A stretch of 64,000 nt of DNA, taken from NCBI GenBank assembly GCA_045863335.1, contig BTVY01000012.1:32001-96000 (forward strand), read 5' to 3'. A model generated the notes under the pieces. That model saw only the letters and a list, made by a program, of their open reading frames with translations. It did not search any database and had not been told where the DNA came from. Made by a program: the position numbers and the translations under genes. The stretch comes from Candidatus Hydrogenedentota bacterium (lineage in GTDB: Bacteria; Hydrogenedentota; Hydrogenedentia; Hydrogenedentales; SLHB01). Below, in pieces: positions 1,278 through 39,925 of the stretch. The stretch's first letter is position 1; each line of letters begins with the position of its first letter.

Positions 1278-1280
1278 GGA

Positions 1281-2390
<1,110 letters not shown>

Positions 2391-15710: not shown

Positions 15711-15939
15711 GGGGCACTCCTTTCTCATTGGACGCAAGAACGTTATGTAATCCGCGCCTCCGGTCACGCGATGCCGATCTGAGGCTCGGACCGGCGCCAG
15801 TCAACCTCTAAAAAGGCCTGACCGTTATCTTGTAACATGGCTGGCAGGGGGCGATATACTTAGAAGAGCGGTTTTTGTGCCGCGCTGTGACAGGCTGTGT
15901 CGTTCGTGTGAAGATTCGCATGGAAGAAGGAGTCGGATT

Positions 15940-23118: not shown

Positions 23119-25641
23119 ATGACTCCTCTCCTGATTGTTGCTGCGTGTTGCCTGGTGCAAGCGCCCGATCCCGCCTGGATCGACCTGGCTGCGGATTGGC
23201 GATTCAAACCGGATCCGGAGCATGTGGGGCTGCGCGACGGGTGGCTCAGCGTTTCCTATGACGACAGCGAATGGACTGCGCTCGACGCCGGGACCCGTTG
23301 GGAGGACCAAGGATTCCCGGAGTTGGACGGCTTCGCCTGGTACCGGCGCTGGGTAGACGTGCCGGCGTTGTGGGGCGGCGCAAAGGCCTGGCTTACCCTC
23401 GGCGCGGTAAACGACGCGTGCACGGTCTACTGTAACGGCGTGCGCATTAATTCTTACGGCGACGAGTCCGGACGGTCGGTGGCGAACACGCCCATCATTG
23501 CCGAGCTAAGCGCGCACCTGAAGCCGGGCGAGGCCAACCTGATCGCCATCGAGTGCCTGGATTGGGGCGGCAGCGGCGGCCTCTGGCAGTTGCCGTGCGC
23601 CATCACGACGGACCCGAACCGGTTGCCGGCCGATTCCGCGATCGCGTGCGTCAGCCAGTACGACGCGAAGCGCATCATCACTACGGTGGACCTGTCGGGA
23701 CTTGGCAACGACCGTCCCGATACCACGCTGCGCCTGGGGGTATTCAAAGGCGATAAGGATAGCCCCGCGGCCGAGACGTCGCTCGTGCTTCCGGCCGATG
23801 CGTTCGCAGCGACTGCCGTGTTCGACCTGAAGAGCCCCGACGCGGGCGATGTGTTTCACGTGCGGCTCCTGGCGGCCGAACCCGGCGACTCGGCTTTGGC
23901 AGGGTTGCCCATCGACCGAGCCGTGCCCTGGCCGGAAGCGCCCGGGTGGCCAGGCGACTATGCCGATCTTCCCGTGCGGAACAATTTTGTGACGGAGCTG
24001 CTGCGCGTGGAACTCGACGAAGCCGGTGGCGCGGATTATTCCATCCTCAATCCACGGAACGGGTGGATCTTCATCTCGGCGCAAACCGAACTCGAACAAG
24101 GGCCGCAAGTGGTCATCGACGGCGAGAACAATCCGGTGCAGTGGCGGCGCAACCCTGAGACCGGCGCATTCGAGGCGATGCGGTACCAGTCGGAAGGCAA
24201 GCACAATATTGCCGTGGCGGCGAATGCGAAAGGCACGTTCGAGGTGCTCACGGTGCCTGAGTTGATGTACTGCTACTACCCCGCGACGCCGCATATCGCG
24301 CCGTACGGGCCATACGATTGGGCCTACGTGTCGCGTCATGTGCTGCCGCACGTCAATACCATCGTGACGGCGGGACCCGAACAGGAAGCCTTCGACCAAT
24401 GGCGGAGCGAGGGCCGGGCCTGGATCAGCAACGCGTCGTTGCCGGGTCTGGCGAGCGCCCAAGCGCCGACGGTGGATCAGGTGTACGAAGCGTGGCGCGC
24501 TAATCCGGGAGTCACTCAGGAAGGGTACTCGGGGATGATCGTGGACGAGTTCCTCTTCGCGGGCGACGACTATTACGCGGCGTGGACAGGAGCGCTGGAG
24601 CGTCTCGCGCACGACCCCGCGTTCGAACACCGCAAGTTCTACGCGTGGTGCGGCGACCTGTACGAGTATCCGTCGAGCGCCACGTTCCAGCAGCAGATCG
24701 CGGAACTGGGGCACCGGTTCGCCTGGGAGAAGTACTTGCCCGAAGCGCGTACGCCGGAAGCGGCCGCGTCCGAGATCGCGCGCAACTTTCAGCAGGACTT
24801 GTCCGTCTGGCAAGCATCCATGCCGGACGTGGCGCAGCGGACGATCATGACGTTGGGATACCTCTGTGCGCCGCCGGAGAGTCTGAACCGTGACCCCGCA
24901 GTCGATTACCACGTGTTCATGGACATGCAGTTTCACCATCTCGCCACGGAGCCGGCCTTGTGGGGCCTTTACGGCATCATGGAATACTCGGCAAGTTATG
25001 CGGACGAGGAATCGCTGCGCTGGGCGCACCAGTTGTTCCGGCACTATTGCATCGAGGGGAACAGGGAACGGTTGACCAGCGATCCGTATGTGCTGCCGCA
25101 CATCGAGAATCCAGACTTCCTGTACGGGTTGCAGGGATGGGACGTCGTCGCGGCGGCAGACGGTTCGATTGACACCGGCGTCATGGAGGGCTTCAGTTGG
25201 CTTCAGGGCCGGTATCCGCGCGTCGGAATCGGCGATCAGTACGCGCGCATGACTCGATCGGGGGAACGTCCGAACCGGATCAGCCAGACGATCCGGGCGC
25301 TCGAACCGGGACGGCTCTATTCGGTGAAAGCGATCGCGGCGGACTTGAACGACCTTGGCAAAGAGCAGAGCGTGGCGTTGCGAATCCAAGTTGCGGAAGC
25401 GGAGCCGGTGCCGGAGTTCTGCTTCGTGTACGCGTACCCCAGCAACTATGCGCATACGTTTGGCGATTTCAACCGGGAGCACCCAGCGTGGTTCACGTTC
25501 CAGCGGTATGTATTTCGCGCCACCAGCGAAACAGCAACGCTGCACGTTCTCGACTGGGTGGCGGAAGATACGCCGGGCGGCGATACGGGACAGGAAATCG
25601 GGTTCAACTTTATCGAGGTACAACCATTCCGCGAGCCGTAG
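23119..25641 (+). CDS. Secreted multidomain carbohydrate-active protein with an N-terminal GH2-type sugar-binding domain
   Basis: WRFKPD, WEDQGF..LDGFAWYRR, LGAVND..TVYCNG, GGSGGLW; C-terminal CBM-like NPDF..GL.GW. Confidence 0.7.
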   Translation: MTPLLIVAACCLVQAPDPAWIDLAADWRFKPDPEHVGLRDGWLSVSYDDSEWTALDAGTRWEDQGFPELDGFAWYRRWVDVPALWGGAKAWLTLGAVNDACTVYCNGVRINSYGDESGRSVANTPIIAELSAHLKPGEANLIAIECLDWGGSGGLWQLPCAITTDPNRLPADSAIACVSQYDAKRIITTVDLSGLGNDRPDTTLRLGVFKGDKDSPAAETSLVLPADAFAATAVFDLKSPDAGDVFHVRLLAAEPGDSALAGLPIDRAVPWPEAPGWPGDYADLPVRNNFVTELLRVELDEAGGADYSILNPRNGWIFISAQTELEQGPQVVIDGENNPVQWRRNPETGAFEAMRYQSEGKHNIAVAANAKGTFEVLTVPELMYCYYPATPHIAPYGPYDWAYVSRHVLPHVNTIVTAGPEQEAFDQWRSEGRAWISNASLPGLASAQAPTVDQVYEAWRANPGVTQEGYSGMIVDEFLFAGDDYYAAWTGALERLAHDPAFEHRKFYAWCGDLYEYPSSATFQQQIAELGHRFAWEKYLPEARTPEAAASEIARNFQQDLSVWQASMPDVAQRTIMTLGYLCAPPESLNRDPAVDYHVFMDMQFHHLATEPALWGLYGIMEYSASYADEESLRWAHQLFRHYCIEGNRERLTSDPYVLPHIENPDFLYGLQGWDVVAAADGSIDTGVMEGFSWLQGRYPRVGIGDQYARMTRSGERPNRISQTIRALEPGRLYSVKAIAADLNDLGKEQSVALRIQVAEAEPVPEFCFVYAYPSNYAHTFGDFNREHPAWFTFQRYVFRATSETATLHVLDWVAEDTPGGDTGQEIGFNFIEVQPFREP

Positions 25642-28581: not shown

Positions 28582-31278
28582 ATGATTCGTGTATGTGCCG
28601 TACTGTGGATCGCCGGGCAAGTCGCGCTGGGCGCCGCGGTCGAAGAAGAAGTCGAAGTGCAGGGCAACTATTCCACGTTCCGCATCGCGCCGGGCCCGGG
28701 CGCTGGCGTGGAATGGTTCGGGTCGCCGGTATCCAACGTGAACCACGCGGGCGGCGAAGGGCTGCTGCTGGAAGGATTCGGCGTCGGTAATTTTTACGTG
28801 CCGAACCGCCGGCTTAACGAGAACCTCGAGATCGTGGATACCGCCGGCGGCGAGCCGGTTATTCGCTACAGCTACGAATGCGACGGCCCCAACATCCGCG
28901 GGCTCCACGTGACCCGCACGATGGAGCCTCAACCCGACGAAGCGTCTATTCGCGTAACCTGGAAGGTGGAGAACAAGGGCGACGAAGACCAATGGGTGTC
29001 GCCCTGGGTGCGAAACGAGGTCCGGCCCGGCGGTTCCACCGAAGTGCGGGACCGCATGGAACTGGCCACGTGGGAAGGCATCGTCAACGTCGAGCGGAGC
29101 GGCTATCACGTGGCGTCGCGAAATTGGGTCGCGGCCACCGATCCCGCGTCCAAGGAAACGCTCTACGCGGTGTTCGACGCGGACCAGACTCATTCCTTTC
29201 TAGTGAATCGCGACGAACAGGTCCCCTTCGGGGCCTTCCAGACCGCTTTCGTGCCGCGCCTGATGAAGGTCGGCGACGCGTGGGAGACCACGTACCGCGT
29301 AAATGTTGTGCGCGGACTCACCCATGTGAATTTCGCCACGGATGAGCTGGCGGCGCAGGTGGACTACGAGGCCGGCGAATTGAGTGTGTTGCTGGCGGCG
29401 GTGAAGCCCATGCCGGGGCTCCAGATCGAAACCAGCATTCTCGCGGCCAACGGCAAAGTCTGGCGGTTGCCGGAGAAAAAGTTCGACATCGACCCTAACA
29501 CCGTCATCCGGTGCACCTACGAGTGGCAAGCCCCGGGCAACGGATCCTACGAGTTGCTGGCGCGGGTCACGCGGGGCGGCGAGGCCGTCGCTCTCGGCAG
29601 CGATACGGGATCGCCCCACGGCGGCATCGACACCCAGTTTGTCGTGGGCGATATGGAAGCCGACGATTTCGAACCGTGGACCGATGCGCCGTTCGCGCTC
29701 GAACGGGGATCGCGCACCTTGCCGCGGCAGTTCGCGGTGCCCGGCGACACGGCCATCTGGTTTGAGAGTTCGCTGGAGAAGATCTTCCCGGAAGACGTTC
29801 CGCAGCGGACGGGCGACTACAAGGCCATCGCCAGCCTGTCGCTGGCGGCGAACGAAAGCGAATCATTCCAGGTCGTGCTGCGCCCTCCTGACGGAATGGA
29901 TCTCCGGAATGTGAACTTGCGCGCCGTGGACCTCGTAAACGCCGCCGCGGGTTCGCGCATCGCGTCATCGCAGATCAGCCTGCATACGGTGGCGTACTAT
30001 CCGGTGCGTATTCCGACGCATTTCGAAGGACCCACCGGCGTCTGGCCCGATGCCTTGCCCGAATTGGAGCCATTCACCGCACAAGGCGGCCAATGCAGCC
30101 CGATCTGGATCACCGTCCATGCGCCCGCAGGCACGCCGCCCGGCGCCTATGAAGGGTACCTCGAACTCACGGCAAATGGCCGCGACCCGGTCGAATTGGG
30201 ATTGCGGGTCAACGTGTACAACTTCGAATTGCCGCGCACGCCGCACCTCAAGACAGACTTCGGATTCTGGATCGATGGCGCGGATAGCCTGTGCCGCCGC
30301 ATGGGGTACTCTGGCAGCGCGGAACAGTTGTTGGACGCCTATCTCGAAAACGGATTGCGCCACAAGGTGACGCTGCGCGAATTGGCCCAGTTCCCGTCGG
30401 AGAGCGCGGATTACAAGGCCAGCCTCGCGATGTTCGAACCGAAGATCAGGGAGCTGATCGACGGCGGCGCGAGCACGCTATCGGTGCCGGCGTCGCTGTT
30501 CGAGTTCCCGGAGCAGCTCGCGGTGGCGAACGAGTTTGTAGAAAAGGCGAATCTTCGCGATCGCGTGTTCTGCCAGATCGCGAATGAGCCGGAACGCCCG
30601 GCTTGGCCGAGGCTGTTCGAAACCATGACGCAATGGCGGGAGATCGCGCCCAACATCCCGCTTATGCTGACGACCTACGGCTCGCAGCCCTTCTTCCACG
30701 AAGCGGCGGACGTCTGGGCCATCCACTCCCCCATCATGGATACGGTGAACAACAAGACCATCCTGGATCGGATCGCCGCCGGCAACGCCGTGTGGTGGTA
30801 CGTGAACCATACGCCGCCACGGCCCTACGCCAATTTCTTCATCGACTTCGCCGCCATGGAACACCGCGTGTTCTTCTGGCAGACCTGGGCCCTGGGCATG
30901 AAGGGCGTTCACTACTGGAACGCGAACTACAGCGAGCCCGGCGTGAATCCGTGGGTCAACCAGCTCGACATCACGCCCACCAACGGCGACGGATTCCTCC
31001 TCTATCCCGGACCGAAGGGCCCGGTTAGTTCGATTCGCTGGGAAGTCATCCGCGACGGGATCGAGGACTACGACTACCTCGTGCTATTTCGCGAACGCAT
31101 GAAGCAGCTCGAAGAAAAAGGCGGACACGCCGCCCTCCTGGAACAAGCCGCGGAAGTCTACAACCTGAAGGAACTCGTCCCCGACCTCGTCACCTTCACC
31201 CGCGACCCCAACGTCCTCATCAGCAAACGGGAAGCCCTGGCAAAGATGATCGTGGCCATGGACGAAGCCCTGCGGTGA
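28582..31278 (+). CDS. Secreted DUF4091/GH123-like glycoside hydrolase domain protein
   Basis: NESESFQ, WPDAL, PIWITV, WWY, GDGFLLYP and SIRWEVIRDGIEDYDY motifs. Confidence 0.85.
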   Translation: MIRVCAVLWIAGQVALGAAVEEEVEVQGNYSTFRIAPGPGAGVEWFGSPVSNVNHAGGEGLLLEGFGVGNFYVPNRRLNENLEIVDTAGGEPVIRYSYECDGPNIRGLHVTRTMEPQPDEASIRVTWKVENKGDEDQWVSPWVRNEVRPGGSTEVRDRMELATWEGIVNVERSGYHVASRNWVAATDPASKETLYAVFDADQTHSFLVNRDEQVPFGAFQTAFVPRLMKVGDAWETTYRVNVVRGLTHVNFATDELAAQVDYEAGELSVLLAAVKPMPGLQIETSILAANGKVWRLPEKKFDIDPNTVIRCTYEWQAPGNGSYELLARVTRGGEAVALGSDTGSPHGGIDTQFVVGDMEADDFEPWTDAPFALERGSRTLPRQFAVPGDTAIWFESSLEKIFPEDVPQRTGDYKAIASLSLAANESESFQVVLRPPDGMDLRNVNLRAVDLVNAAAGSRIASSQISLHTVAYYPVRIPTHFEGPTGVWPDALPELEPFTAQGGQCSPIWITVHAPAGTPPGAYEGYLELTANGRDPVELGLRVNVYNFELPRTPHLKTDFGFWIDGADSLCRRMGYSGSAEQLLDAYLENGLRHKVTLRELAQFPSESADYKASLAMFEPKIRELIDGGASTLSVPASLFEFPEQLAVANEFVEKANLRDRVFCQIANEPERPAWPRLFETMTQWREIAPNIPLMLTTYGSQPFFHEAADVWAIHSPIMDTVNNKTILDRIAAGNAVWWYVNHTPPRPYANFFIDFAAMEHRVFFWQTWALGMKGVHYWNANYSEPGVNPWVNQLDITPTNGDGFLLYPGPKGPVSSIRWEVIRDGIEDYDYLVLFRERMKQLEEKGGHAALLEQAAEVYNLKELVPDLVTFTRDPNVLISKREALAKMIVAMDEALR

Positions 31279-31426: not shown

Positions 31427-31568
31427 GTAGGAGGGCGGGTTTTCTTACCCGCCGCATTCGCAAGAAAGCACGAGGATCGGCTCTCAACGCGATCGCAATG
31501 CAAGAATCGGGAATTTGGCTTCGAGGGGCAAGCCTCAGCGCGGCGGGTAGGAAAACCCGCCCTCCTAT
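31427..31568. repeat. GTAG-type REP doublet, second family
   Basis: gtaggagggcgggttttcttacccgccgc ... gcggcgggtaggaaaacccgccctcctat. Confidence 0.85.
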
Positions 31569-32729
31569 TTATGCAGGCGTGATCCGCCCGAGCACGACGG
31601 GCTCTTGCGCGCCGGTGGCGTGGGGGACGTTGGAGGCTTTTCCGCAGAAGAGTTCGTTGCCGAGGATGGCGGCGCTGACGGCGTCGATGGCGTCGTGGGG
31701 CAGGCCGTACTCGTCGCTGGTGCGCACGGTGACGTCGCCCAGGCCGCTTTTGACCCGTTGCACGAGGGCCTTGTTGTTCACGCCGCCGCCGCTGAGGATG
31801 AGGCGGGAGATCTTGTACTGGGGTTTCACGAAGCGGTTGTAGGCGCGGACGATGCAGTAGCTGACCGCCGAGGTCACTGTGGCGACGAGGTCTTCCATGG
31901 AGTGATCTTTGCGCCCGGCGAGCGCGTCGCGCAGGTAGACTTCAGGGCCAAACTCGTCGCGCCCGGTGGTCTTCGGGGGAACTTTCGCGAAGTAAGGGTG
32001 GTCGAGCAGGAACTCGAGGAACTCGTCGATCACCACGCCTTTGGCGGCGGCTTCGCCATCATCGTCGATTTCCTGGTTGCCGCTGGTGATATGCCGAATG
32101 GCGCCGTCGATGACGATGGTGCCCGGGCCCGCGTCGAACGCGACCAGTTCGTCGAAGCTCGGCGGGATGACGGAGAGTGTGCTGATGCCGCCGAGGTGGA
32201 GGCGCGCCATGATGCGGTCCTCGCGGGCGAACAACACGAAATCGGAATAGGTGGAGATAGGACCGCCCTGTCCGCCGGCCGCCATGTCACGGGCGCGGAA
32301 ATCCGAGGCTACGGGCAAACCGGTTCGTTCCGCAATAACGGCCGACTCGCCGACCTGAAAGGTGCCGGTGGCCTGGTCATACCCACGGGGCGGATAGTGG
32401 GCCACGGTAAATCCGGTGGAAGCGACGAAATCGACCTCGCACATCTCGGACTGCGCGAGGCGGACCATTTCCTGGGCGGCGTCCGCGAGGAACTCGCCGA
32501 GTTCGAAGTTGAGCAGGCAGACTTCGCGCACGTCCTTCTTGGCCACGATCAGGCGCGTGCGCAAACCCGAGGAATAGGGGAAATGGCGCGTCTTCATGAG
32601 CTTCATGTGGAGGCCCGGTCCGCTCCCCTTGATGCGGACCAGTGCGGCGTCTACCCCGCGGGCAGAACTGCCGCAGGTCAAACCTATGGCGAATCGCGTC
32701 GCCTTCTTGGAGATTGCCTGGAAAAGCAT
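31569..32729 (-). CDS. anmK: Anhydro-N-acetylmuramic acid kinase-like protein (divergent)
   Basis: DFRARDMAAGGQG, FDAGPG, PPKTTGR and SGGG..N; several canonical motifs altered. Confidence 0.8.
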   Translation of the reverse strand: MLFQAISKKATRFAIGLTCGSSARGVDAALVRIKGSGPGLHMKLMKTRHFPYSSGLRTRLIVAKKDVREVCLLNFELGEFLADAAQEMVRLAQSEMCEVDFVASTGFTVAHYPPRGYDQATGTFQVGESAVIAERTGLPVASDFRARDMAAGGQGGPISTYSDFVLFAREDRIMARLHLGGISTLSVIPPSFDELVAFDAGPGTIVIDGAIRHITSGNQEIDDDGEAAAKGVVIDEFLEFLLDHPYFAKVPPKTTGRDEFGPEVYLRDALAGRKDHSMEDLVATVTSAVSYCIVRAYNRFVKPQYKISRLILSGGGVNNKALVQRVKSGLGDVTVRTSDEYGLPHDAIDAVSAAILGNELFCGKASNVPHATGAQEPVVLGRITPA

Positions 32730-32762
32730 CGTCTACCTTTACTTACGTCCGCGGGCCGGCAC

Positions 32763-34415
32763 TCACTTCACGGTTTCCAACAGTGCATTGCCAAAGTAGT
32801 GGAGCAGAATGTCCCCGTACCCCGCACCGGCAAGCGCCATGCCCCGCGCGCCATGCTGACACAATCCTACCCCATGGCCACGTCCGCCGCCAACAAAGGT
32901 GAACGCGGTTGATCCGTCAGCCCTTATTAATACCATGGCGCTGGGCAAACCGCCAAACGCTTGGCGGATAGGGAGTTCCTTGCGAATGGTCACACTGCCG
33001 GAGGAGCCGGTGACGGTGACGGACTTGAGCCGGCCACTCACGCCCCGCTCGCCGGGGGTGATGGAGCGCACCGTGCCGACCTTGTAGCGCTGGTTAACGA
33101 GCCGCGTCACCTCGGCCACGGTGAGCCGCCGGGACCAGCGGAACCCCGCGTCGCCGCTGCAGTAGGCGTTCGGCTGTTGTTGCAGCCATTTCCCCAGATT
33201 GGCGGACGGCGTGGAGGTTGGAACCGTTCCCTTCGGAAAGTCAGCCGCGCCGCGCAGGCTCATGTCCGGTGGCGAAGACCAGACGGCATCGTTGTCCTCA
33301 GACCAACCGCCGCAGTTGGAGCTGAACACGGCCGGGATGGTGCGGACGCCATCCGTCAGGACTTGGCCGCGTGTCGCGACGACGGCGGCATCGGTGGCGG
33401 GGTGCCGGCCGCTGAATCCGCCGTAGACCCGGTCGCCCTCGCTGTTCGTGAAATTAAACCCGTTAAGAATATGCTTGAGCGCGAGGTGCCCCAGGACGTC
33501 GCTTCGAGCAGCGATGGCCTGGGCTTTCAACGCTTCGGACGGCCACAGGGCGGGCATTTCCGCGGGTAGCACCCCGGCGAGGTAGTCTTCCACCGGGAGC
33601 GTTTCGAAGACGCTCAACGCGGAATCGGACTCGACCGCCAGGCTGATTTCTCCGGTGTAAGACGCACCGGACCGGTCGCCGGGGTGGCTGACGCGAATCG
33701 GGGCCGTCGAGGTCAACCGGAAGGGTACGGGCCAATTCATGGTGTGGCCATCGGGTGATTTGGCCGTGACGGTTCCGCTGCCCGGCAGAATGGTCTCGGG
33801 CCGGACCCAGGACCACTGGTTGTCCTGTTCCAGTTCCTTCTTGAAGGCGTTGGCCTGGGCTTCGGTTTCAAAACGGTGCAGGGAAATCCAATACTCCCGG
33901 CCGTCGAGGATGTGGCCGGACGCGGTCCGGTAACGCGACCCCATGAGGATGGGTTCCACGGGATAGCCTTGTGCGCGCCATCCCTCCACATAGGCATTCA
34001 TCACGTCCGCTTCATGGGGTTTGAAGGTTTTGACGAAATTGTGGAAATGCTGGCGCGGCGGAGTGGCCTGGGTCAGGGTGAGCGACCACGACGCGCCCGG
34101 GAGATCGAGCGCCCCCCCATCATGTTCGAGGCGTATTGCGCTGGTGCTTTGAATGTCTACCGACCGCGCGCCGTGAAAGAGCCGAATCGTGACAGGCGGA
34201 TTCGCCTCGGTGACAGTGTCCTCGGGTTTCGACTCAGGCGCCGGGGCCGGAGCGGACGCCGGTTGCGGCGCGGGTGCGGGTGCAGGCGCTGCTACAGGCC
34301 ACGGCGCTGGCGGCGGCTCGGGTGAGCGGCAACCGGTCCATGTCGCGCCAATCACTAGAACCAAGAACGCAAGACTCGCACGCCACAAGCCGTGCCCCGT
34401 TAGGGGCGAAATCAC
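32763..34415 (-). CDS. SpoIID/LytB domain lipoprotein (lytic transglycosylase)
   Basis: EDYLAGVLPAEM, EALKAQAIAARS, SSNCGG, GRGHGVGLCQ.GA; lipobox WTGC; Pro/Ala linker. Start position uncertain. Confidence 0.9.
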   Translation of the reverse strand: MISPLTGHGLWRASLAFLVLVIGATWTGCRSPEPPPAPWPVAAPAPAPAPQPASAPAPAPESKPEDTVTEANPPVTIRLFHGARSVDIQSTSAIRLEHDGGALDLPGASWSLTLTQATPPRQHFHNFVKTFKPHEADVMNAYVEGWRAQGYPVEPILMGSRYRTASGHILDGREYWISLHRFETEAQANAFKKELEQDNQWSWVRPETILPGSGTVTAKSPDGHTMNWPVPFRLTSTAPIRVSHPGDRSGASYTGEISLAVESDSALSVFETLPVEDYLAGVLPAEMPALWPSEALKAQAIAARSDVLGHLALKHILNGFNFTNSEGDRVYGGFSGRHPATDAAVVATRGQVLTDGVRTIPAVFSSNCGGWSEDNDAVWSSPPDMSLRGAADFPKGTVPTSTPSANLGKWLQQQPNAYCSGDAGFRWSRRLTVAEVTRLVNQRYKVGTVRSITPGERGVSGRLKSVTVTGSSGSVTIRKELPIRQAFGGLPSAMVLIRADGSTAFTFVGGGRGHGVGLCQHGARGMALAGAGYGDILLHYFGNALLETVK

Positions 34416-34616
34416 GCCGCGGACGTGACCCAGGGCATCGCCCTGGGAACGGGAACGCAAGAAATGAATCGCCCTGAAAGGGCGAAACACGGACCTTGCA
34501 GTGGTCGCGTTCTCCGATTTCGATTGGATGTTGCGCTCCTTCAGAGCTTGAACATGGAGAGTACGTTCGTATCCCAGGGCGTTGCCCTGGGCTATCCTAT
34601 TGTGGCCTTTCAGGCC
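34394..34616. repeat. Composite palindromic (BIME-like) element
   Basis: gccccgttaggggc, cccagggcatcgccctggg, gccctgaaagggc, gctccttcagagc, cccagggcgttgccctggg, ggcctttcaggcc. Confidence 0.8.
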
Positions 34617-34681
34617 AATTTTTGGGATGGTCGGACGAAGCCGGGTTGCATGAACGGCGACGTCGAGTAGGGTTCGAAGAA

Positions 34682-34703
34682 GCAGGCGGGACGCCTGCGC
34701 TAC
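34682..34703 (-). repeat. Single GTAG REP of the 6258 family
   Basis: gcaggcgggacgcctgcgctac. Confidence 0.8.
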
Positions 34704-34731
34704 ATGGCTGGTGACATTGGTGCTCGGGGAG

Positions 34732-36594
34732 TCAATCACGTTCCAATGCGGCACGCAGGTTTCCTTTCGATTCGGTTAGTTGCGCCTCGGCTTGGTCGCG
34801 GGGGACGCCACGGCGTTTCATGAGGACGGCCACGCGTATGTCGTCGCCCGCGACGCGCAACTGGGTGTCCGCCTCGGACTCGGGCAAGCCGGTCAACGCA
34901 GCGACGATGCGCGTGGCGCGTTTGCGCAGTTTCGCGTTCATGGGTTTGACGCCCACCATGTATCCCTCGAAGATGCGACCGGAAAGAGCCATGGCGCCGG
35001 TGGAGATCATGTTGAGCACGAGCTTCGTGGCGGTGCCGGCCTTGAGGCGCGTCGACCCGGGCAGGACTTCCGGCCCGGTGTCCAACGCAATGGTCCAGTC
35101 GGCAATGCTGTGCGCAGAGGGATTGCAGCATAGCAGGCACGTGTATGCGCCGTGCCGCTTCGCTTCCGCGAGGCCCGCGTGCACGTACGGAGTGGTGCCC
35201 GAGGCGGCGATTCCGACGACCACGTCATGCTCGCATAGCTTCGGTTGTAATGCGCCCAGATCGGCGACGGCCGCGGCCTCGTCGTCTTCGACGCCTTCGC
35301 CGCTGGAGCGGAGCGCCGCGTCGCCGCCCGCGATGATGCCGACGACCTGTCCAGGGTCCACTCCGAAGGTGGGCGGGCATTCCGACGCGTCCAGTACACC
35401 AAGCCTTCCGCTCGTTCCCGCGCCAAGGTAGATAAGCCGTCCACCGGCTGCGAACGCGTCAGCAACGCGCTGCACCATATGAGCGATCGGTGCGCGGGCG
35501 GCGCGCGTGGCGTCGACGGCTTCCTGGTCAGCGTCGCACATGCGCGCAACGATGGCGTCGGCGGTGAGGGTGTCGAGGAATCGCTCGTGTTGCGTTGCGG
35601 ATTCCGTTCGGGAGAGGACCACTTCCGTCGCGACGGATCCGGCGCGAGCTTCGGAAACGAACAGCGAGCGACTGGGGTCGGCAATCAGACGCAAACTCGC
35701 CGCGGTTCCATCAAACCGCGTTCGCTCAAACGTAGAAGGCAAAGCAGGGTTGCCATGACAATTCTTAACCATCGACTGAGCACGGTCGACGAGTTCGGGA
35801 AGCGCGTCGACCACGCCCCCGTGAATGTACATAGGGGCAGCATTCGTCAGTCCGGTTTCAAGTGCCGCGTTGGCAGCGAGTGCGAACAATTCGGTTAGGG
35901 CGTCAACGACACATCCCTCCGCCGCGCTATCCGAATCGTGATACAGAGCAATCACCGCCGGTGCCAGCGACGCGACGTCCTGCTTCGTCGCGGAACGCGA
36001 CCAGACGATCAACTCGGAAAAGGTGCGCAGTCCCGCAGCTTCCGGTAGCGCGTCCACCAACTTGGTGGGTCCGCATTGACCGTCTAGGGACGCGGCGGCG
36101 GCGCGCAAGGCGCGGACTGCAATGTCGTAGGCGCTGCCCACGTCGCCGAAAAGCGCGCCACGGCCGCCGAAGATGCGGGGCTGGCCTCCGGCAGTCTTTG
36201 CGATGACGCTGGAGCCCGTGCCCGCAATGACGACCATGCCCTCGCCGTCGCCGATGTTGGCGTGCAGCATGGTGTCCACATCGCTGGCGACCACGGCGCG
36301 TCGCACACCCAGCGACTGGACCAGTCCATTCGCGATGGCATTACGCAGCATCTCATTCCGCGCGCCGGAGATCCCGGCAGCGACTTCGCAGGTTGACGCG
36401 TCCCGCGCACCGAGCAGTTCCCGGCCGAGTTGGATCAGCATGCGAAGTGACTGTGGAACTCCCAACTCAACCGGGTTGGACGGACCGCCCGTTCGTTCTG
36501 CAATCGCGTTGCCTTCCGCGTCATAGAGTGCGGCGCGTGTGGCCGTGCCGCCGCCATCAAACGCAAGGTAGATTGTGTCGTGAGGATCTGTCAT
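34732..36594 (-). CDS. murQ: Fusion of a BadF/BadG-type amino-sugar kinase (MurK/NagK-like) and MurNAc-6-P etherase MurQ
   Basis: N-terminal FDGGGT, IAGTGS; C-terminal GAGTSGRLG.LDASECPPTF, EGVED, SGTTPYV, GSTRLKAGTA. Confidence 0.93.
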   Translation of the reverse strand: MTDPHDTIYLAFDGGGTATRAALYDAEGNAIAERTGGPSNPVELGVPQSLRMLIQLGRELLGARDASTCEVAAGISGARNEMLRNAIANGLVQSLGVRRAVVASDVDTMLHANIGDGEGMVVIAGTGSSVIAKTAGGQPRIFGGRGALFGDVGSAYDIAVRALRAAAASLDGQCGPTKLVDALPEAAGLRTFSELIVWSRSATKQDVASLAPAVIALYHDSDSAAEGCVVDALTELFALAANAALETGLTNAAPMYIHGGVVDALPELVDRAQSMVKNCHGNPALPSTFERTRFDGTAASLRLIADPSRSLFVSEARAGSVATEVVLSRTESATQHERFLDTLTADAIVARMCDADQEAVDATRAARAPIAHMVQRVADAFAAGGRLIYLGAGTSGRLGVLDASECPPTFGVDPGQVVGIIAGGDAALRSSGEGVEDDEAAAVADLGALQPKLCEHDVVVGIAASGTTPYVHAGLAEAKRHGAYTCLLCCNPSAHSIADWTIALDTGPEVLPGSTRLKAGTATKLVLNMISTGAMALSGRIFEGYMVGVKPMNAKLRKRATRIVAALTGLPESEADTQLRVAGDDIRVAVLMKRRGVPRDQAEAQLTESKGNLRAALERD

Positions 36595-37883
36595 GAGACT
36601 CGCGCTGCCTGCGCATACTTCTCCACGATCCCGACACGGATCGTGCCGTTCTCGCAGATGTCCTTGTAGAGATAGGCGCTTGGGTTGGGCGTCCGCGCGA
36701 GGGTCTCGCGATCGACGTGGACCAATCCGTACCGCGCGGCATATCCGTCGATCCATTCAAAGCCATCCAACATGGAGCGATGAAAATAGCCGCGCACATG
36801 GATACCTTGCGCGAGGGCTTCCTGCACGATCGCCAGATGATTCACGAGGTATGCGCACCGCGCGGCGTCATCCGTTGTATCGAGGCCATTTCCGGTTATG
36901 TAAATGGGCTTTCCGTATTCGGAAATCGTTTTGAGCACTTCCCGCAGCCCCTCCGGGTCCGTTTCATACCGGGGGGGTCGTATCGGACTTCCCGTTGGAT
37001 CGGTTAATGCCCGAAAGAACTGTCGCGGTTTCCCGGCGCGAAAGCAGACGCGCTCTTTTCCGTAATACGAAACCGCGATAAAATCCGCGCCCCCCCCCAG
37101 ACGTCGCGCACCACCGAGCGGAAACGGGGCCTCGTCCCGAATCATCGCCGCGGGAAACAGGTCGTTGGCCCGGCGCATTTCACGGCGCGCCGCCCTCAGG
37201 TCCCAGGCGCTCTCTTCGTTTACCGGCACGCAATTGCGCGCGCGGATGGAAAGGCCCACTGCGGCCTCCGGCTGAAGGCGTTGGATGATGGCGTAGCTCT
37301 CCGCTTGGGCGTGCATCAGCGCGTTCAACGCAGTGAATATAGACCAAATGCCGCGCCGCCCCGGAGGCCATTGTCCTTCGAGCCACGCCATGGTGGCGAG
37401 GTGTTCCGGTTCCAGCAACGGAATCCAATGCGCGCAGTATTCGGAAAGGGCCTCGACGACGCGCTGCACAAAAGCGCCGAAGGTGCGCGCTGCGTCGCGC
37501 TGCAACCATCCTCCCCGATCGGCAAACCAGGCCGGCAACGTCACATGATTGAGCGCGCAGATGGGCGTCATGCCGCGCCGCCGCAGGGCCTCCGCGACGT
37601 GTGCGTAATGAACGAGCGCCTCGGGATCGAAATGGTCGGGTTCGGGCTGGACCCGGCTCCACTCGATCGAAAACAGATGCGCGTTGTGACCCAGTTTGCG
37701 CGCGAGTTCGAAATCCGATTCGTAGTGTTCGAAATGCTCCGAGGCGCGACTCGACGTGCGACGGTCGGCGATGCGGCCGGGACGCTGTTCCCAGCGCCAC
37801 CAATCGGCATTAAAGTTGCCCCCTTCCACTTTGTACGCGGACGTAGTGGCTCCCCAGAGAAAGTCTTTCGGAAAGGCGTTCAC
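36591..37883 (-). CDS. Glycoside hydrolase family 1-fold protein lacking the catalytic nucleophile
   Basis: FPKDFLWG, FSIEWSR, FEW..GY..RYGL scaffold; ITENG reads ITGNG; GTG start after GGGGAG. Confidence 0.9.
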   Translation of the reverse strand: MNAFPKDFLWGATTSAYKVEGGNFNADWWRWEQRPGRIADRRTSSRASEHFEHYESDFELARKLGHNAHLFSIEWSRVQPEPDHFDPEALVHYAHVAEALRRRGMTPICALNHVTLPAWFADRGGWLQRDAARTFGAFVQRVVEALSEYCAHWIPLLEPEHLATMAWLEGQWPPGRRGIWSIFTALNALMHAQAESYAIIQRLQPEAAVGLSIRARNCVPVNEESAWDLRAARREMRRANDLFPAAMIRDEAPFPLGGARRLGGGADFIAVSYYGKERVCFRAGKPRQFFRALTDPTGSPIRPPRYETDPEGLREVLKTISEYGKPIYITGNGLDTTDDAARCAYLVNHLAIVQEALAQGIHVRGYFHRSMLDGFEWIDGYAARYGLVHVDRETLARTPNPSAYLYKDICENGTIRVGIVEKYAQAARVS

Positions 37884-37988
37884 ACGGTACTCCCCACCGC
37901 GTCTCATGTCTGATGTCCGCCAGCCAGCAGCGGGGTGACAACGGTGCGCCCCAATGGTAGCATGGCCGTCTCGCATGGAGAAAACGGA

Positions 37989-38936
37989 ATGACAACCAAC
38001 GAGGTGGCCGTACTGATGGCCTTGCTCCGGATACCCGGCGCAGGAACGGTGTCCGCGCGACGCGCCGTGGCCTTGGCGGCGCACCTCGGCGTTCCGCTCG
38101 ATGCGCTTCCACTCATTCCCACACGGCAACTGTTGGAGCAGTTCCCGACGAGTCAGACCGATCAATTGGCGTCTTTCCTTCCGCAATGTACCGGGGAAGC
38201 CTGCGACCATGAGGTGAGGTTCCTGGATCGTATACTCCGGTCGGGAGCCCAAGTCATCACCTGCGCGGACGGTGACTATCCCGATTCACTCGCTCGCGAC
38301 TTGGGGAATCGGGCGCCCGCCCTGCTTTTCCTGGCAGGCGATCGGGAACTGCTCGAAGCGCCTTCGGCCGCGGTCGTTGGCGCGCGGGAAGTCAGCCGGC
38401 GCGGTGCGATGCTGGCAGGCGAAACCGCAGCCGTCTTCGCGGGCGCCGGCATCAACGTGGTGAGCGGCGGCGCGACGGGGGTCGATTCGGCGGCCCATGC
38501 GACGGCGCTGGCGCATGGCGGTACGACGGTCGTCGTATTGCCGCAGGGTCTGTTACCCTTCCGCGGTTCGCGCGAGTTGCTGCAAGCGGTGGAGGACGGC
38601 CGTGCGGCGATTCTGAGCGAGTTCTTGCCCGACATGACGTGGCAAACCCACGCCGCGGTAACGCGCAACGCGACGATCAGCGCGCTGTCGAACTTGGTCT
38701 GCGTCATCGAACCCAAGAAGCAGGGCGGCAGCGTGCGGACCGCTCGGCTGGCCATCGAGCATGGGAAACGCGTGCTCGTCTATTGCGACGCGCAGCACCT
38801 GGATCTGGGTACCACGTTGACCCGTTCGGGCGCGGTGTCACTACTCGATGCCGAGGGCCAGTTCAACCCGGAATACCTGCTTCAGCAGTGGAATTCAGCC
38901 CCCGCTCAATCCGCGGGACAGACGGAACTCTTTTAA
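37989..38936 (+). CDS. dprA: DNA-processing protein DprA/Smf
   Basis: DYP..L, AVVGAR, VVSGGA.GVD.AAH, SEF.P, RN and GGS..TA motifs. Confidence 0.88.
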   Translation: MTTNEVAVLMALLRIPGAGTVSARRAVALAAHLGVPLDALPLIPTRQLLEQFPTSQTDQLASFLPQCTGEACDHEVRFLDRILRSGAQVITCADGDYPDSLARDLGNRAPALLFLAGDRELLEAPSAAVVGAREVSRRGAMLAGETAAVFAGAGINVVSGGATGVDSAAHATALAHGGTTVVVLPQGLLPFRGSRELLQAVEDGRAAILSEFLPDMTWQTHAAVTRNATISALSNLVCVIEPKKQGGSVRTARLAIEHGKRVLVYCDAQHLDLGTTLTRSGAVSLLDAEGQFNPEYLLQQWNSAPAQSAGQTELF

Positions 38937-39034: not shown

Positions 39035-39925
39035 ATGGCGACAGAAGCTGTACCCTACCGGTCTATCCACGAAATGGCGGGGACGACCTTCGCGCCGCTC
39101 AAATCCCCGGCGGACGCGGAGCGGTTCAAACTCAGCGAGGCGCAAGTGACGGAGTTCCGCGAACGTGGTTTCGTCAAGGGTCCCCGTGTGTTGGACGACC
39201 GGCAAATCGAGGTCTTGCGCGAAGGCCTGGAACGCATCCGCACCGGCGAGAACGAACGGCTGGGCGAACTGTATGAAGTCGATGAAGCGTGGAAGAGCGC
39301 ACCCGAACAGAACGTCTTCCATTTCCTCGGCGCGTGGCGCATCGATGAGGCGTTCCACGACATCCTGTTCCACCCGGCCATCGCGATTCCGGTGGGCCAA
39401 TTGCTCGATACGCCGCGCGTGCGGTTCTGGCACGACCAGGTCTTCTACAAACCGGCGCGGCATCCGGGCGTGGTCGCTTGGCACCAGGATTACTCGTACT
39501 GGACCCGCAGCGTGCCTGCGCGGCACCTGACGGTGTGGATCGGACTCGACGATTCGACGCTGGCCAACGGCTGCATCCACTTCGTGCCCGGCAGTCACAA
39601 GTGGCCGCTGTTGCCGAAACTGCAACTCCTCGAAAACATGGATGCTATCCGCGACATACTCACGCCGGAACAACTCGAAGAGTTCAAACCCGAACCCTTG
39701 GAGCTGAAGGCCGGCGAATGCTCCTTCCACGACTGCATGACGCTCCACGGGTCCTACGGCAACAACTCCGACATCCCCCGGCGCGGGGTCGTCCTCAATT
39801 TTATGCATCCCGAAACGAAGAGCGCCGACGGCACGAAACCGTTGCTGGTGCATACTCCCGTGATCCCGGAAGGGGAAATCATCGAGGGAGAGGACTTTCC
39901 GATCGTGTATGGGGAAGACTGCTGA
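39035..39925 (+). CDS. PhyH family Fe(II)/2OG dioxygenase
   Basis: WHQD, NGC...VPGSH, HGS..N and RR motifs. Confidence 0.92.
   Translation: MATEAVPYRSIHEMAGTTFAPLKSPADAERFKLSEAQVTEFRERGFVKGPRVLDDRQIEVLREGLERIRTGENERLGELYEVDEAWKSAPEQNVFHFLGAWRIDEAFHDILFHPAIAIPVGQLLDTPRVRFWHDQVFYKPARHPGVVAWHQDYSYWTRSVPARHLTVWIGLDDSTLANGCIHFVPGSHKWPLLPKLQLLENMDAIRDILTPEQLEEFKPEPLELKAGECSFHDCMTLHGSYGNNSDIPRRGVVLNFMHPETKSADGTKPLLVHTPVIPEGEIIEGEDFPIVYGEDC

Follow-up and report, generated by a model that had tools for sequence, protein, structure and literature searches.

We identified a four-gene operon, conserved across the candidate phylum Hydrogenedentota, that very probably acts as a unit recycling peptidoglycan amino sugars and that encodes a GH1-fold protein from which the catalytic nucleophile has been lost. 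Our best guess is that this protein is an active beta-N-acetylhexosaminidase using substrate-assisted catalysis, and we give the full statement, a recycling operon including this mechanism, a probability of about 0.4. No published description of such an operon was found. The operon and adjoining features lie in the window (the whole 64-kb stretch of DNA that was analyzed) as follows.

36591..37883, minus strand: GH1-fold gene, 430 aa (PF00232, 265 bits; TIGR03356, 265 against a cutoff of 478.5)
34732..36594, minus strand: kinase-MurQ fusion, one ORF of 620 aa (PF01869, 78.5 bits; NF003915; TIGR00274)
34416..34731: spacer of 316 nt with paired hairpins, between the kinase-MurQ and SpoIID genes
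32763..34415, minus strand: SpoIID/LytB-domain lipoprotein gene, 550 aa (TIGR02669, 158 bits, cutoff 83.3; PF08486, 75.5 bits)
31569..32729, minus strand: variant AnmK gene, anhydro-sugar kinase family, 386 aa (PF03702, 257 bits)
31542..31561: GC-rich hairpin where the AnmK and GH123-like genes converge (consensus scan)
28582..31278, plus strand: GH123-like gene, 898 aa (PF13320, 76.7 bits), adjacent and convergent to the operon

The four co-oriented genes and the ATGA coupling of the original prediction were confirmed at these coordinates; the ATGA at 36594-36591, in which the stop codon of the GH1-fold gene overlaps the kinase-MurQ ATG, was read in the DNA. An ATG at 37907 offers the GH1-fold gene an alternative start, and no signal peptide was seen in its start region and translation. 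In the fusion, the MurQ domain (about 34732-35620) scored 350.8 bits with NF003915 (cutoff 168) and 309 bits with TIGR00274 (cutoff 302), and the BadF/MurK-type sugar kinase domain lies at about 35635-36594; the closest solved relatives were MurQ 4s12 (234 bits) and the MurNAc/GlcNAc kinase 8zo3 (85.9 bits). MurQ was the best-conserved part, with the motif DASECPPTF intact in the window protein and all but invariant in relatives, and the motif GAGTSGRLGVLDASECPPTFG nearly invariant over 24 loci. Kinase and MurQ formed one ORF at 24 of the 25 loci with both, an arrangement suggesting that the kinase makes MurNAc-6-P, and the two domains occurred together in 120/120 homologues among the matches listed.

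The GTG at 34415 is the most likely start codon of the SpoIID gene; translation from there yields a signal peptide whose last residues, TWTGC, resemble a lipobox with its Cys. Next come a Pro/Ala-rich linker, an N-terminal domain whose match to SPOR fell below threshold (E=0.12), and a C-terminal SpoIID lytic-transglycosylase domain. Aligned to SpoIID 4rwr, the protein retains the Glu of the SEM motif, which reads AEM. This Glu and the intact MurQ motif agree with the original statement that MurQ and SpoIID keep their catalytic Glu. The spacer upstream of this gene contains two units of paired hairpins spaced about 144 nt apart, one of which matches Rfam RF01687 (Acido-Lenti-1) on the plus strand at 34573-34617 (37.6 bits; gathering score 37); it is uncertain whether the element is part of the operon. 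The hairpin at 31542..31561 is only a tentative bidirectional terminator, since an obvious T-run is missing on the minus strand.

In the route that we propose, the SpoIID-type lipoprotein would, judging from its family, cleave glycan strands outside the cytoplasm and leave 1,6-anhydro-MurNAc ends, and the fragments would be imported by a transporter encoded outside the operon. In the cytoplasm, the GH1-fold protein would then cleave the beta-1,4 bond in GlcNAc-(anh)MurNAc or MurNAc-GlcNAc. The variant AnmK would convert anhMurNAc to MurNAc-6-P, the kinase domain would phosphorylate free MurNAc or GlcNAc, and the fused MurQ domain would strip the lactyl ether to yield GlcNAc-6-P.

At 31 of the 33 variant GH1 loci with downstream DNA, the kinase gene directly followed the GH1-fold gene, whereas it was a neighbor at 0/45 canonical GH1 loci (Fisher p about 1e-19, shared ancestry not corrected for), in agreement with the prediction of a conserved cell-wall sugar salvage operon. 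Where enough downstream DNA was available, MurQ was present at 25/30 loci, SpoIID at 15/26, and AnmK at 20/26; clustering of the 367 ORFs of 35 loci revealed no other recurrent family in more than 13 loci. It is unlikely that this synteny is merely inherited, in which case the GH1-fold protein would act on or bind an unrelated beta-glycoside and the NagZ/NamZ steps would fall to the GH123-like protein, to NamZ-family proteins, or to a GH3 enzyme elsewhere in the genome. The variant loci belong almost entirely to one phylum, and DprA, which has no evident sugar link, was syntenic at 17/35 loci by tblastn, so adjacency kept in this phylum need not imply shared function. However, DprA is divergent in orientation, whereas the GH1-fold and kinase genes are co-oriented and at most loci overlap or lie no more than 27 nt apart. 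Their adjacency persists down to 37% GH1 identity although the outer flanks are not conserved, and nucleophile loss and the operon gene context match exactly (35 variant versus 45 canonical loci).

As predicted, NagZ (GH3) and NamZ are missing from the window, in which none of the 47 non-overlapping ORFs of at least 150 aa had a GH3 or NamZ Pfam match. The GH123-like gene, previously unmentioned, is a direct neighbor of the operon here and is found near it at 5/35 loci, and a beta-lactamase-NamZ fusion lies near it at 4/35. Both are candidates for the missing hexosaminidase steps; their presence favors inherited synteny and counts against substrate-assisted catalysis by the GH1-fold protein. 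The GH123-like protein, which has a signal-like N terminus, matches 8k2j (88 bits) and 8k2h (72 bits), solved beta-N-acetylgalactosaminidases/hexosaminidases, and may be a periplasmic beta-N-acetylhexosaminidase partner of the operon. In its catalytic Asp-Glu pair, Asn takes the place of Asp (ADEP aligns to ANEP); the GH123-like genes of loci L008 and L015 read GDEP.

We assigned the residues of the GH1-fold protein by alignment to the solved GH1 structure 1vff. ITENG reads ITGNG, with Gly331 in place of the nucleophile Glu; NEP reads LEP, with the acid/base Glu158 kept; and YRFSI reads HLFSI, with Arg replaced by Leu70. Further changes are Asn to Leu157, Asn to Ser272, and Asn to Gly374, while the O4/O3-binding pair Glu376-Trp377 is retained. 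Three residues touching the nucleophile or sugar O2 are gone (Arg, Asn, and Asn to Leu, Leu, and Ser). According to PMC6467970, Arg75, Asn282, and Tyr284 of TtbGly contact the nucleophile Glu338, and O2 is bound by Asn163 and Glu338; the equivalents of Arg75, Asn282, Tyr284, Glu338, and Asn163 in the GH1-fold protein are Leu70, Ser272, Tyr274, Gly331, and Leu157. A confident AF2 model (pLDDT 94.2) showed an intact barrel, with TM values of 0.87-0.90 against GH1 structures. The pocket geometry is taken from homology only.

In substrate-assisted catalysis, the 2-acetamido group would attack C1 with Glu158 as the acid/base, and the small or hydrophobic residues replacing the nucleophile and the O2 surroundings would give this group room. 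Andre-Miral et al. reportedly turned TtbGly into an N-acetylglucosaminidase in 2015, by N163A or N163D/E338G. The acetamido group is polarized by an Asp in GH18, GH20, GH84, and GH123; no conserved carboxylate for this role was evident in the GH1-fold protein, position 113 being a mere candidate.

There is a slim chance that the GH1-fold protein follows a different chemistry, as an inverting phosphorylase or a natural “glycosynthase-like” transferase, or with its catalytic center moved to residue 113 or to newly conserved residues. Phosphate or another external nucleophile would then fill the space of the lost Glu, with an alpha-sugar-1-phosphate as product or donor. Nucleophile-less GH1 mutants do use alpha-configured activated donors, as PMC9875253 documents for the E338G glycosynthase of TtbGly. 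Arg residues were newly gained and conserved in the variant clade (R30, R34, R230, R280, and R369), and Asp or Glu at position 113 was commoner in sequences lacking the acid at 158 (10/18 versus 18/101 others; Fisher p=0.0014, phylogeny not corrected for). Yet the Arg beside the nucleophile, Arg75 of TtbGly in PMC6467970, has become Leu, Cys, or Phe, with hydrophobic surroundings that would make a poor phosphate site, and the operon encodes no sugar-1-phosphate-using enzyme.

The nucleophile Glu was absent at 35/35 variant GH1 loci recovered, and a single tree branch (support 1.0) split variant from canonical GH1; its loss marks the clade and is no quirk of one strain. In the nucleophile column, 101 of 121 sequences had Gly and 14 had Ala, and the Arg column was hydrophobic (Leu 88, Cys 10, Phe 8). 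Small residues were conserved at positions 272, 331, and 374, few columns being more conserved than Gly/Ala331 and Gly374, and Glu376-Trp377 was 96-98% conserved. The pocket nevertheless has no single fixed new design and is highly variable within the clade: mean entropy over 12 pocket columns was 1.43, versus 0.03 in canonical relatives, for sets of equal tree depth (1.10 versus 1.09). Positions 18, 113, 157, 274, and 369 were no more conserved than the average column; at position 113, His, Glu, and Asp together made up about 85%. Such high variability of the former -1 subsite, compared with canonical relatives at the same depth, argues against the substrate-assisted mechanism.

This variability, where canonical relatives are invariant, together with the loss of the nucleophile and its entire support network, would also suit a non-catalytic GH1-fold protein that binds a cell-wall sugar via Glu376-Trp377 and has a role in sensing, in substrate presentation, or in regulating the kinase-MurQ protein, with the variant AnmK behaving likewise in some lineages. 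We regard this as possible but somewhat doubtful. Non-catalytic precedents are Klotho in GH1 and the chitinase-like lectins in GH18, and GKRP is a kinase regulator derived from MurQ. The acid/base Glu was missing at 11/34 related loci and in 8/34 representatives at 50% identity, and the subclade without it (L006, L008, L009, L012, L015, and L042) still showed a GH1 dN/dS of 0.09-0.19, so that there is a conserved function needing neither catalytic Glu; this, too, counts against substrate-assisted catalysis. In the same subclade the AnmK-like protein has a disrupted P-loop (TADSACLG) and GEG where GGG is expected, at a dN/dS of 0.04-0.05, and MurQ is absent at 4/5 loci with room for it. Translational coupling and near-constant adjacency to the kinase also fit such a non-catalytic protein, for which the new conserved R34, R230, and R280 could make a binding surface. 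On the other hand, the acid/base Glu was kept in 99/121 sequences, better conserved than three quarters of the columns, and the GH1-fold protein carries no attached DNA-binding or signaling domain. The conserved Gly/Ala331 and Gly374 fit a cavity that accommodates a group of the substrate, but a cavity of this kind would also be retained in a binding protein. To our knowledge, cytoplasmic non-catalytic glycosidase homologues are rare in bacterial catabolic operons.

The best NCBIfam equivalog of the variant AnmK was NF007148 (371.6, just below the cutoff of 387). In alignments to LGK 4zxz and AnmK 3cqy, GTSxDG reads GSSARG, with Arg24 in place of the second Mg-site Asp; Asn is also replaced by His178, and the Glu326 equivalent by Asp349, while FDTGPG retains its Asp and the general-base Asp199 is intact. 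The roles of Asp14, Asp182, and Glu326 in AnmK follow PMC10570956. Replacement of the Mg-site Asp by Arg and of Glu by Asp is coherent yet lineage-specific, not an operon-wide feature: the Arg signature was common to 28/120 homologues, and AnmK was canonical in 11/19 related operons.

That the GH1-fold and AnmK genes are decaying, functionless pseudogenes in the making is scarcely credible. Both have lost canonical catalytic residues, but both frames are intact, the GH1 model is confident, and the derived states are kept across clades (the AnmK Arg signature, and GH1 Gly/Ala in 115/121). Decay is contradicted by dN/dS: in comparison with L001 it was 0.089 (GH1-fold) and 0.017 (AnmK), and with L023, 0.16 and 0.08.

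The original interpretation is thus partly supported. Non-conserved gene order, strain-specific substitutions, and dN/dS near 1, which it had named as signs against it, were all contradicted. The coherent alteration of GH1 and AnmK held in being clade-wide and under purifying selection, but not as an operon-wide AnmK change or a uniform GH1 pocket. The analysis shows which genes these are, that their order is conserved, which residues are substituted, and that purifying selection acts on them, whereas we infer the substrate, mechanism, and activity of the GH1-fold protein and the activity of the variant AnmK. A “rewired” GH1 protein in this operon would mean either an unusual way of cutting cell-wall sugars or a non-enzymatic sugar-binding partner.

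The operon consists of four genes, all in the same orientation on the minus strand, in a region with a G+C content of 60-64%:

36591-37883, minus strand: gene 1, the GH1-fold protein (430 aa; PF00232, 265 bits)
34732-36594, minus strand: gene 2, kinase-MurQ, one 620-aa ORF whose ATG overlaps the gene 1 stop codon as ATGA
34416-34731: the 316-nt spacer between the kinase-MurQ and SpoIID genes
32763-34415, minus strand: gene 3, a SpoIID/LytB-domain protein with a GTG start (TIGR02669, 158 bits)
31569-32729, minus strand: gene 4, the AnmK-family protein (PF03702, 257 bits), 33 nt beyond gene 3

The N-terminal domain encoded by gene 2 is a BadF/BcrA-family ATPase (PF01869, 78.5 bits), and its best solved relative is the MurNAc/GlcNAc kinase 8zo3 (85.9 bits). 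It carries the motifs of a MurK/NagK-type kinase, namely, FDGGGT (phosphate-1), SDVD (catalytic Asp), and AGTGSS (phosphate-2), which are conserved in 30 loci, and scored 70 against the NagK_SO3507 model, for which the cutoff is 370. The MurQ domain reaches equivalog level (NF003915, 350.8 bits with a cutoff of 168; TIGR00274, 309 bits with a cutoff of 302), matches the solved structure 4s12 with 234 bits, and conserves the SIS-domain motif DASECPPTF, the Glu of which we take to be catalytic. The gene 3 product has a signal peptide that ends in TWTGC, followed by a linker rich in Pro and Ala, with the SpoIID domain at its C terminus. Its TIGR02669 score lies above the SpoIID/LytB cutoff of 83.3, and it falls below the sporulation equivalog TIGR02870 (98 versus 234.75). 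The Glu of its AEM motif, presumably the catalytic one, aligns with that of the SEM motif of the solved 4rwr. The kinase, MurQ, and SpoIID domains all retain their family motifs, and the original prediction that MurQ and SpoIID keep their catalytic Glu proved correct. In the databases, the fusion is named only “MurNAc-6-P etherase,” and the GH1 proteins are named “beta-glucosidase / family 1 glycosylhydrolase.”

Consensus scans for promoters and terminators were uninformative (one promoter-like site versus 1.4 expected). Two units, spaced approximately 144 nt, lie in the 316-nt spacer; each comprises a CCCAGGGC...GCCCTGGG hairpin plus a small second one. One of the units matches Acido-Lenti-1, an orphan Rfam family, with 37.6 bits (gathering score, 37). 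This match, at 34573-34617 on the plus strand and antisense to the operon, is the sole Rfam match in the 64-kb window. We also noted a match to the SPOR domain below the threshold (E=0.12; 13.2 bits with a cutoff of 21) at residues 173-207 of 550 in the SpoIID protein (window 33800-33900 region), which, if real, would fit binding to denuded glycan strands.

The presence of mreB and mreC genes at window positions 255-2366 indicates that the organism builds a peptidoglycan wall. We put the probability that the operon recycles peptidoglycan amino sugars at roughly 85%. The SpoIID-type transglycosylase lipoprotein would generate fragments ending in anhydro-MurNAc, the AnmK-family and MurK-type kinases would produce MurNAc-6-P, and the fused MurQ would convert MurNAc-6-P to GlcNAc-6-P. 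That a sugar kinase is fused to MurQ suggests free MurNAc as an intermediate, and this calls for an exo-acting hexosaminidase or muramidase. Neither the GH1 protein nor any of the 47 large window ORFs matched GH3 NagZ or NamZ (PF00933, PF07075/PF20732), in agreement with the earlier claim that both are missing from the window. Judging from its gene context, the GH1 protein may work like NagZ or NamZ. Specifically, it may be a cytoplasmic beta-N-acetylhexosaminidase that operates by substrate-assisted catalysis, a tentative assignment that we place somewhat short of even odds.

Membership of the GH1 family was supported by homology (PF00232; 243.9 bits against the solved GH1 structure 1vff) and by the (beta/alpha)8 fold. 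The AF2 model shows, with high confidence, an intact barrel (pLDDT 94.2, pTM 0.93), a Foldseek search of the PDB with this model returned only GH1 structures as neighbors (TM 0.87-0.90), and an ESM Atlas look-up led to GH1 clusters only. The protein lies below the GH1 beta-glucosidase equivalog TIGR03356 (265.2 bits versus a cutoff of 478.5). When aligned with 1vff, NEP reads LEP, ITENG reads ITGNG, and YRFSIEWSR reads HLFSIEWSR; the acid/base Glu is thus kept, the Asn of NEP is lost, and the nucleophile Glu of the I/VTENG motif is absent.

According to QM/MM work on TtbGly, the beta-glycosidase of Thermus thermophilus, Glu164 is the acid/base and Glu338 is the nucleophile, which is contacted by Arg75, Asn282, and Tyr284; O2 is bound by Asn163, O3 is bound by Gln18, His119, and Trp393, and O4 is bound by Glu392, itself held by Asn390 (PMC6467970). 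The pocket of the window protein is formed by Lys18, Leu70, His113, Leu157, Glu158, Ser272, Tyr274, Gly331, Gly374, Glu376, and Trp377. Compared with the TtbGly roles, all residues that touch the nucleophile or O2 are lost, while the acid/base and the far end of the pocket remain. Substrate-assisted beta-N-acetylhexosaminidases (GH18/20/84/85/123) have no enzyme nucleophile and combine a general acid/base with a residue that polarizes the 2-acetamido group. In the window protein, the nucleophile is absent and Glu158 is present. No conserved carboxylate that could polarize the 2-acetamido group was identified in the alignment of 121 sequences (the best 120 homologues and the query), in which position 113 is His in 73, Glu in 17, and Asp in 11.

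The pocket geometry, judged by homology, favors hexosaminidase activity, as the side facing C2 is larger and hydrophobic, as an acetamido group needs. The engineering of TtbGly points in the same direction: Andre-Miral et al. (Glycobiology, 2015) reportedly obtained an N-acetylglucosaminidase with N163A and with N163D/E338G. The same two positions, the Asn of NEP and the nucleophile Glu, are changed naturally in the window protein; however, the natural proteins have Leu, Tyr, or Phe and not Asp at the Asn position, and Arg75 and Asn282 are lost as well. To our knowledge, a switch from a nucleophile to substrate assistance within GH1 is known from protein engineering only. An E338G glycosynthase of the T. 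thermophilus beta-glycosidase is also documented in PMC9875253.

Two further ideas were considered and disfavored. A phosphorylase is disfavored because the Arg beside the nucleophile is lost, and a 6-phospho-sugar in subsite -1 is disfavored because Glu376 is kept; 6-phospho-glycosidases replace the Glu at the equivalent position.

We found that the loss of the nucleophile is a property of a whole clade. A profile search over 1.84 billion cluster representatives yielded 3242 proteins at E<=1e-30, the best 150 of which were inspected. Among these 150, 138 were single-domain proteins, 40 of them without Glu at the nucleophile column: all 30 single-domain matches in ranks 1 to 36 lacked it, and from rank 38 onward nearly all had an invariant canonical signature. 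Across the 121 aligned sequences, the nucleophile column is Gly in 101, Ala in 14, and Glu in 2, and the acid/base column is Glu in 99. At 50% identity, the nucleophile-less subfamily comprises about 35 clusters. A 697-aa protein (P0006) on a 104,617-nt public contig, in which the C-terminal ~345 residues of the GH1 protein are joined to a kinase domain, was not accepted as a natural fusion, since the first ~77 GH1 residues are missing and the tail looks out of frame, so that it may be an assembly or frameshift artifact.

A search of genome contigs identified 80 loci, 35 variant (GH1 without the nucleophile Glu) and 45 canonical (GH1 with the normal signature). The nucleophile Glu is present in 0 of the 35 variant loci, and the acid/base Glu is kept in 21 of 34 and replaced in 11. 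By the depositors' own labels on the MAG contigs, variant loci belong mostly to Candidatus Hydrogenedentota, with some Nitrospir-, Bathyarchaeia, or Rhodothermaeota MAGs. The canonical loci carry the signature QRHNENYENWDNFEW and come from Chloroflexota, Patescibacteria, Eisenbacteria, Dormiibacterota, and others; two end before the nucleophile site, and one, L051, has Ala there. This gene (L051:3781-5049, from an Anaerolineales MAG) encodes an otherwise canonical GH1 (QRHNENY-A-NWDNFEW) and has no murQ-type neighbors.

In a FastTree phylogeny of 112 variant and 45 canonical sequences, the two groups were divided by one branch (length 0.61, support 1.0). The canonical relatives keep all 12 pocket positions almost perfectly, with a mean column entropy of 0.03 versus 1.43 in the variant clade, at tree depths of 1.09 and 1.10, respectively. 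Within the variant clade, positions 18, 113, 157, 274, and 369 are conserved no better than average columns; among pocket positions, only Gly331, Gly374, Glu376, and Trp377 belong to the best-conserved sixth of columns, and Glu158 and Leu70 lie in the best quarter. The clade has also gained conserved residues that are absent from canonical relatives (Arg34, Trp227, Arg230, Arg280, His389, and Asn400). Retention of the acid/base in most members, including the window protein, speaks for catalysis by acetamido assistance, but the high pocket entropy and the replacement of the acid/base Glu in the 11 loci count against a simple new NagZ. Some other chemistry seems quite unlikely to us.

We then determined the neighbors of the GH1 genes by tblastn of the window proteins against the loci; the resulting counts are not phylogenetically independent. 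Immediately 3' of the GH1 gene, the kinase gene is present in 31 of the 33 variant loci with downstream DNA (the exceptions are L028 and L054; L029 and L030 reach the contig edge and were left out), compared with 0 of the 45 canonical loci. Among variant loci with enough room, MurQ was present in 25/30, SpoIID in 15/26, and AnmK in 20/26, and no canonical locus had these operon neighbors (Fisher p ~1e-19, without correction for shared ancestry). Kinase and MurQ form a single ORF in 24 of 25 loci, and both domains occur in all 120 best homologues of the fusion. When the 367 ORFs of the 35 variant loci were clustered, the only recurrent families beyond the operon genes were DprA, a GH123-like protein, and a beta-lactamase-NamZ fusion; no transporter or amidase recurred near the operon. 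Gene order is kept down to 37% GH1 identity while the flanks change, which indicates that the operon is held together by selection. A GH1 function unrelated to the operon, with synteny that was merely inherited, would fit the shared ancestry of the loci; given the changing flanks, we regard it as rather unlikely.

Coding sequences were also under constraint. Relative to L001, the closest public contig (91-99% amino acid identity), dN/dS was 0.089 for the GH1 gene, 0.164 for kinase-MurQ, 0.027 for the SpoIID domain, and 0.017 for the AnmK-family gene; the values relative to the related locus L023 were 0.16, 0.22, 0.11, and 0.08, respectively. These ratios, far from 1, upheld the view that the active sites are coherently altered and have not undergone strain-specific decay. 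Gene decay would account for lost catalytic residues, but with such ratios it is very improbable.

Several features flank the operon. A divergent dprA gene adjoins the GH1 gene upstream in the window (37935-38936, plus strand) and in 17 of 35 loci (tblastn), with a very short intergenic gap and no evident functional link. The beta-lactamase-NamZ fusion, a protein of approximately 750 aa with a beta-lactamase-fold domain (218 bits), NamZ_N (215), and NamZ_C (139 bits), is found in 4 of 35 loci, just past dprA and upstream of the operon:

L011:6514-8769, beta-lactamase-NamZ fusion
L013:5883-8135, beta-lactamase-NamZ fusion
L017:4335-6590, beta-lactamase-NamZ fusion
L029:3-2366, beta-lactamase-NamZ fusion

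On the other side, a GH123-like gene (28582-31278, plus strand) adjoins the operon, and such a gene is present in 5 loci. Its ANEP motif aligns with the catalytic ADEP of solved beta-N-acetylhexosaminidases, which implies that the acetamido-polarizing Asp is Asn in the window and L001 proteins; those of L008 and L015 read GDEP. This is the third sugar enzyme with an altered carboxylate in the window's lineage. Elsewhere, the window encodes three PhyH-family (phytanoyl-CoA dioxygenase-like) paralogues (2662-3462, 39035-39925, and 44311-45192, all on the plus strand), several GFO/IDH/MocA oxidoreductases and a PIG-L deacetylase (14874-15767) in the same stretch, a GxGYxYP putative glycosidase (19842-21617), and a GH2-like protein (23119-25641).

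One subclade of variant loci (L006, L008, L009, L012, L015, and L042; partly L018) lacks both catalytic Glu residues, with Thr or Asn at the acid/base site and Glu or Asp at position 113. The kinase of this subclade is a separate protein, and four of the five loci with room (L006, L008, L015, and L042) have no MurQ. In L008, L012, and L015, the nucleotide-binding motifs of the AnmK-like protein are disrupted (P-loop TADSACLG, GEG). Nevertheless, dN/dS is 0.09-0.19 for GH1 and 0.04-0.05 for the AnmK-like genes, and this purifying selection points to a conserved GH1 function that requires neither catalytic Glu, which counts against a hexosaminidase. A pseudoenzyme, serving as a noncatalytic sugar-binding partner of kinase-MurQ, would explain both this subclade and the pocket variability better; we rate it as a close rival, possible and on the unlikely side. 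The noncatalytic GH1 homologues of the Klotho family similarly retain the fold and miss one catalytic Glu. The Klotho family consists of eukaryotic extracellular co-receptors, whereas the present protein is bacterial and, by sequence, cytoplasmic and belongs to a catabolic operon.

The AnmK-family protein (386 aa) is altered as well. According to PMC10570956, Asp14 of Pseudomonas aeruginosa AnmK (Asp26 in levoglucosan kinase) coordinates a second Mg ion together with the alpha- and beta-phosphates, Glu326 partners the catalytic Mg, and the general base is Asp182. In the window protein, GTSxDG reads GSSARG, NIGG reads HLGG, and FDTGPGN reads FDAGPGT, and Glu326 aligns with Asp349. It shares with canonical AnmK and levoglucosan kinase the family, the fold signature motifs, and the general-base Asp (AFDAGPG), but differs in HLGG, in FDAGPGT, and in both metal ligands, the second-Mg Asp being Arg24 and the Glu326 equivalent being Asp. 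PF03702 places the protein in the family, and the best equivalog score falls narrowly below the cutoff (NF007148, 371.6 versus 387). Solved structures favor levoglucosan kinase over AnmK (209 versus 149 bits); specificity for another anhydro-sugar was rejected, as the NCBIfam AnmK models score far higher (372 bits) and we read this preference as an effect of which structures have been solved.

Among 120 AnmK homologues, 73 have the canonical Asp/Asn/Asp/Glu set. In 28, Arg occupies the Asp14 site, almost always accompanied by His and Asp at the two partner sites; this signature defines a clade. The canonical residues are found in 11 of the 19 AnmK genes linked to the operon but not in the other 8. 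Thus, the changes in AnmK are genuine and coherent but restricted to a lineage; those in GH1 date back as far as the association with the operon. The original prediction of coherent alteration at both active sites was thus borne out, with the AnmK change confined to a lineage, and the proposed co-occurrence with murQ applied to the nucleophile-less GH1 but was not general for the AnmK variant. The simplest reading of the motifs is that the protein remains an active kinase whose Arg24 would bind phosphate in place of the second Mg ion; a nonkinase role is possible. The L023 copy (L023:4383-5537, 82% identical) reads AFVAGPGT, and this Asp-to-Val change at the general base could be a sequencing error or a real loss of catalysis.

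The logic of the pathway is that of the known E. coli-type route and of MurK-MurQ systems; its components differ. The E. coli/Pseudomonas route (AmpG, NagZ of GH3, AmpD, AnmK, and MurQ), with its sequence from anhMurNAc to MurNAc-6-P to GlcNAc-6-P as outlined in PMC13691567, shares with the operon the AnmK-family and MurQ steps and a lytic transglycosylase that gives anhydro-MurNAc ends. In contrast to that route, GH3 NagZ, AmpG, and AmpD are missing both from the window and from the genes that recur near the operon, a SpoIID/LytB-type protein represents the lytic transglycosylase, the first position belongs to a nucleophile-less protein of the GH1 fold, and the MurK-type kinase is fused to MurQ. 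A BadF-family MurNAc/GlcNAc kinase alongside MurQ is also found in the murT-murK-murQ system of Tannerella forsythia (PMC5790795, PMC10465942) and as MurK in Clostridium acetobutylicum. Unlike these systems, the operon encodes kinase and etherase as one polypeptide (24/25 loci) and, compared with T. forsythia, has no MurT-type transporter. We take the two genes to be separate in both of those species. In Bacillus subtilis, the murQ-murR-murP-amiE-nagZ-namZ cluster couples the exo-GlcNAcase NagZ and the exo-muramidase NamZ (GH171) to MurQ (PMC8054146). Four of the 35 related loci likewise have NamZ-family domains in the vicinity of the operon, but the GH1 protein is homologous to neither NagZ nor NamZ and is cytoplasmic by sequence. 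B. subtilis NagZ and NamZ act extracellularly.

In the published literature, with subscription journals little covered, we found no account of a GH1 protein in cell wall recycling, of a nucleophile-less bacterial GH1, of cell wall recycling in Hydrogenedentes, or of the present operon. The full combination of a natural GH1 that swapped its nucleophile for substrate-assisted catalysis, a phylum-wide cytoplasmic substitute for NagZ/NamZ, and a co-evolving AnmK with Arg in place of the second Mg is, in our estimate, doubtful. Textbook knowledge of peptidoglycan recycling rests on few model organisms, and the operon brings three unusual features from a deep-branching uncultured phylum: the fusion of kinase and etherase, a transglycosylase of the SpoIID type, and a large, uncharacterized GH1 subfamily that lacks the nucleophile and is strictly tied to murQ. 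If the GH1 protein is active, it would be a natural case of a retaining glycosidase family adopting substrate-assisted catalysis, a new enzyme family for the NagZ/NamZ step, and a natural template for glycosynthase or transglycosidase engineering. An inactive GH1 protein would be a rare example in bacteria of a cytoplasmic pseudo-glycosidase maintained by strong selection and would suggest a role in sensing sugars or in controlling the cell wall salvage kinase. Either outcome would correct the database labels “beta-glucosidase” and “MurNAc-6-P etherase.”
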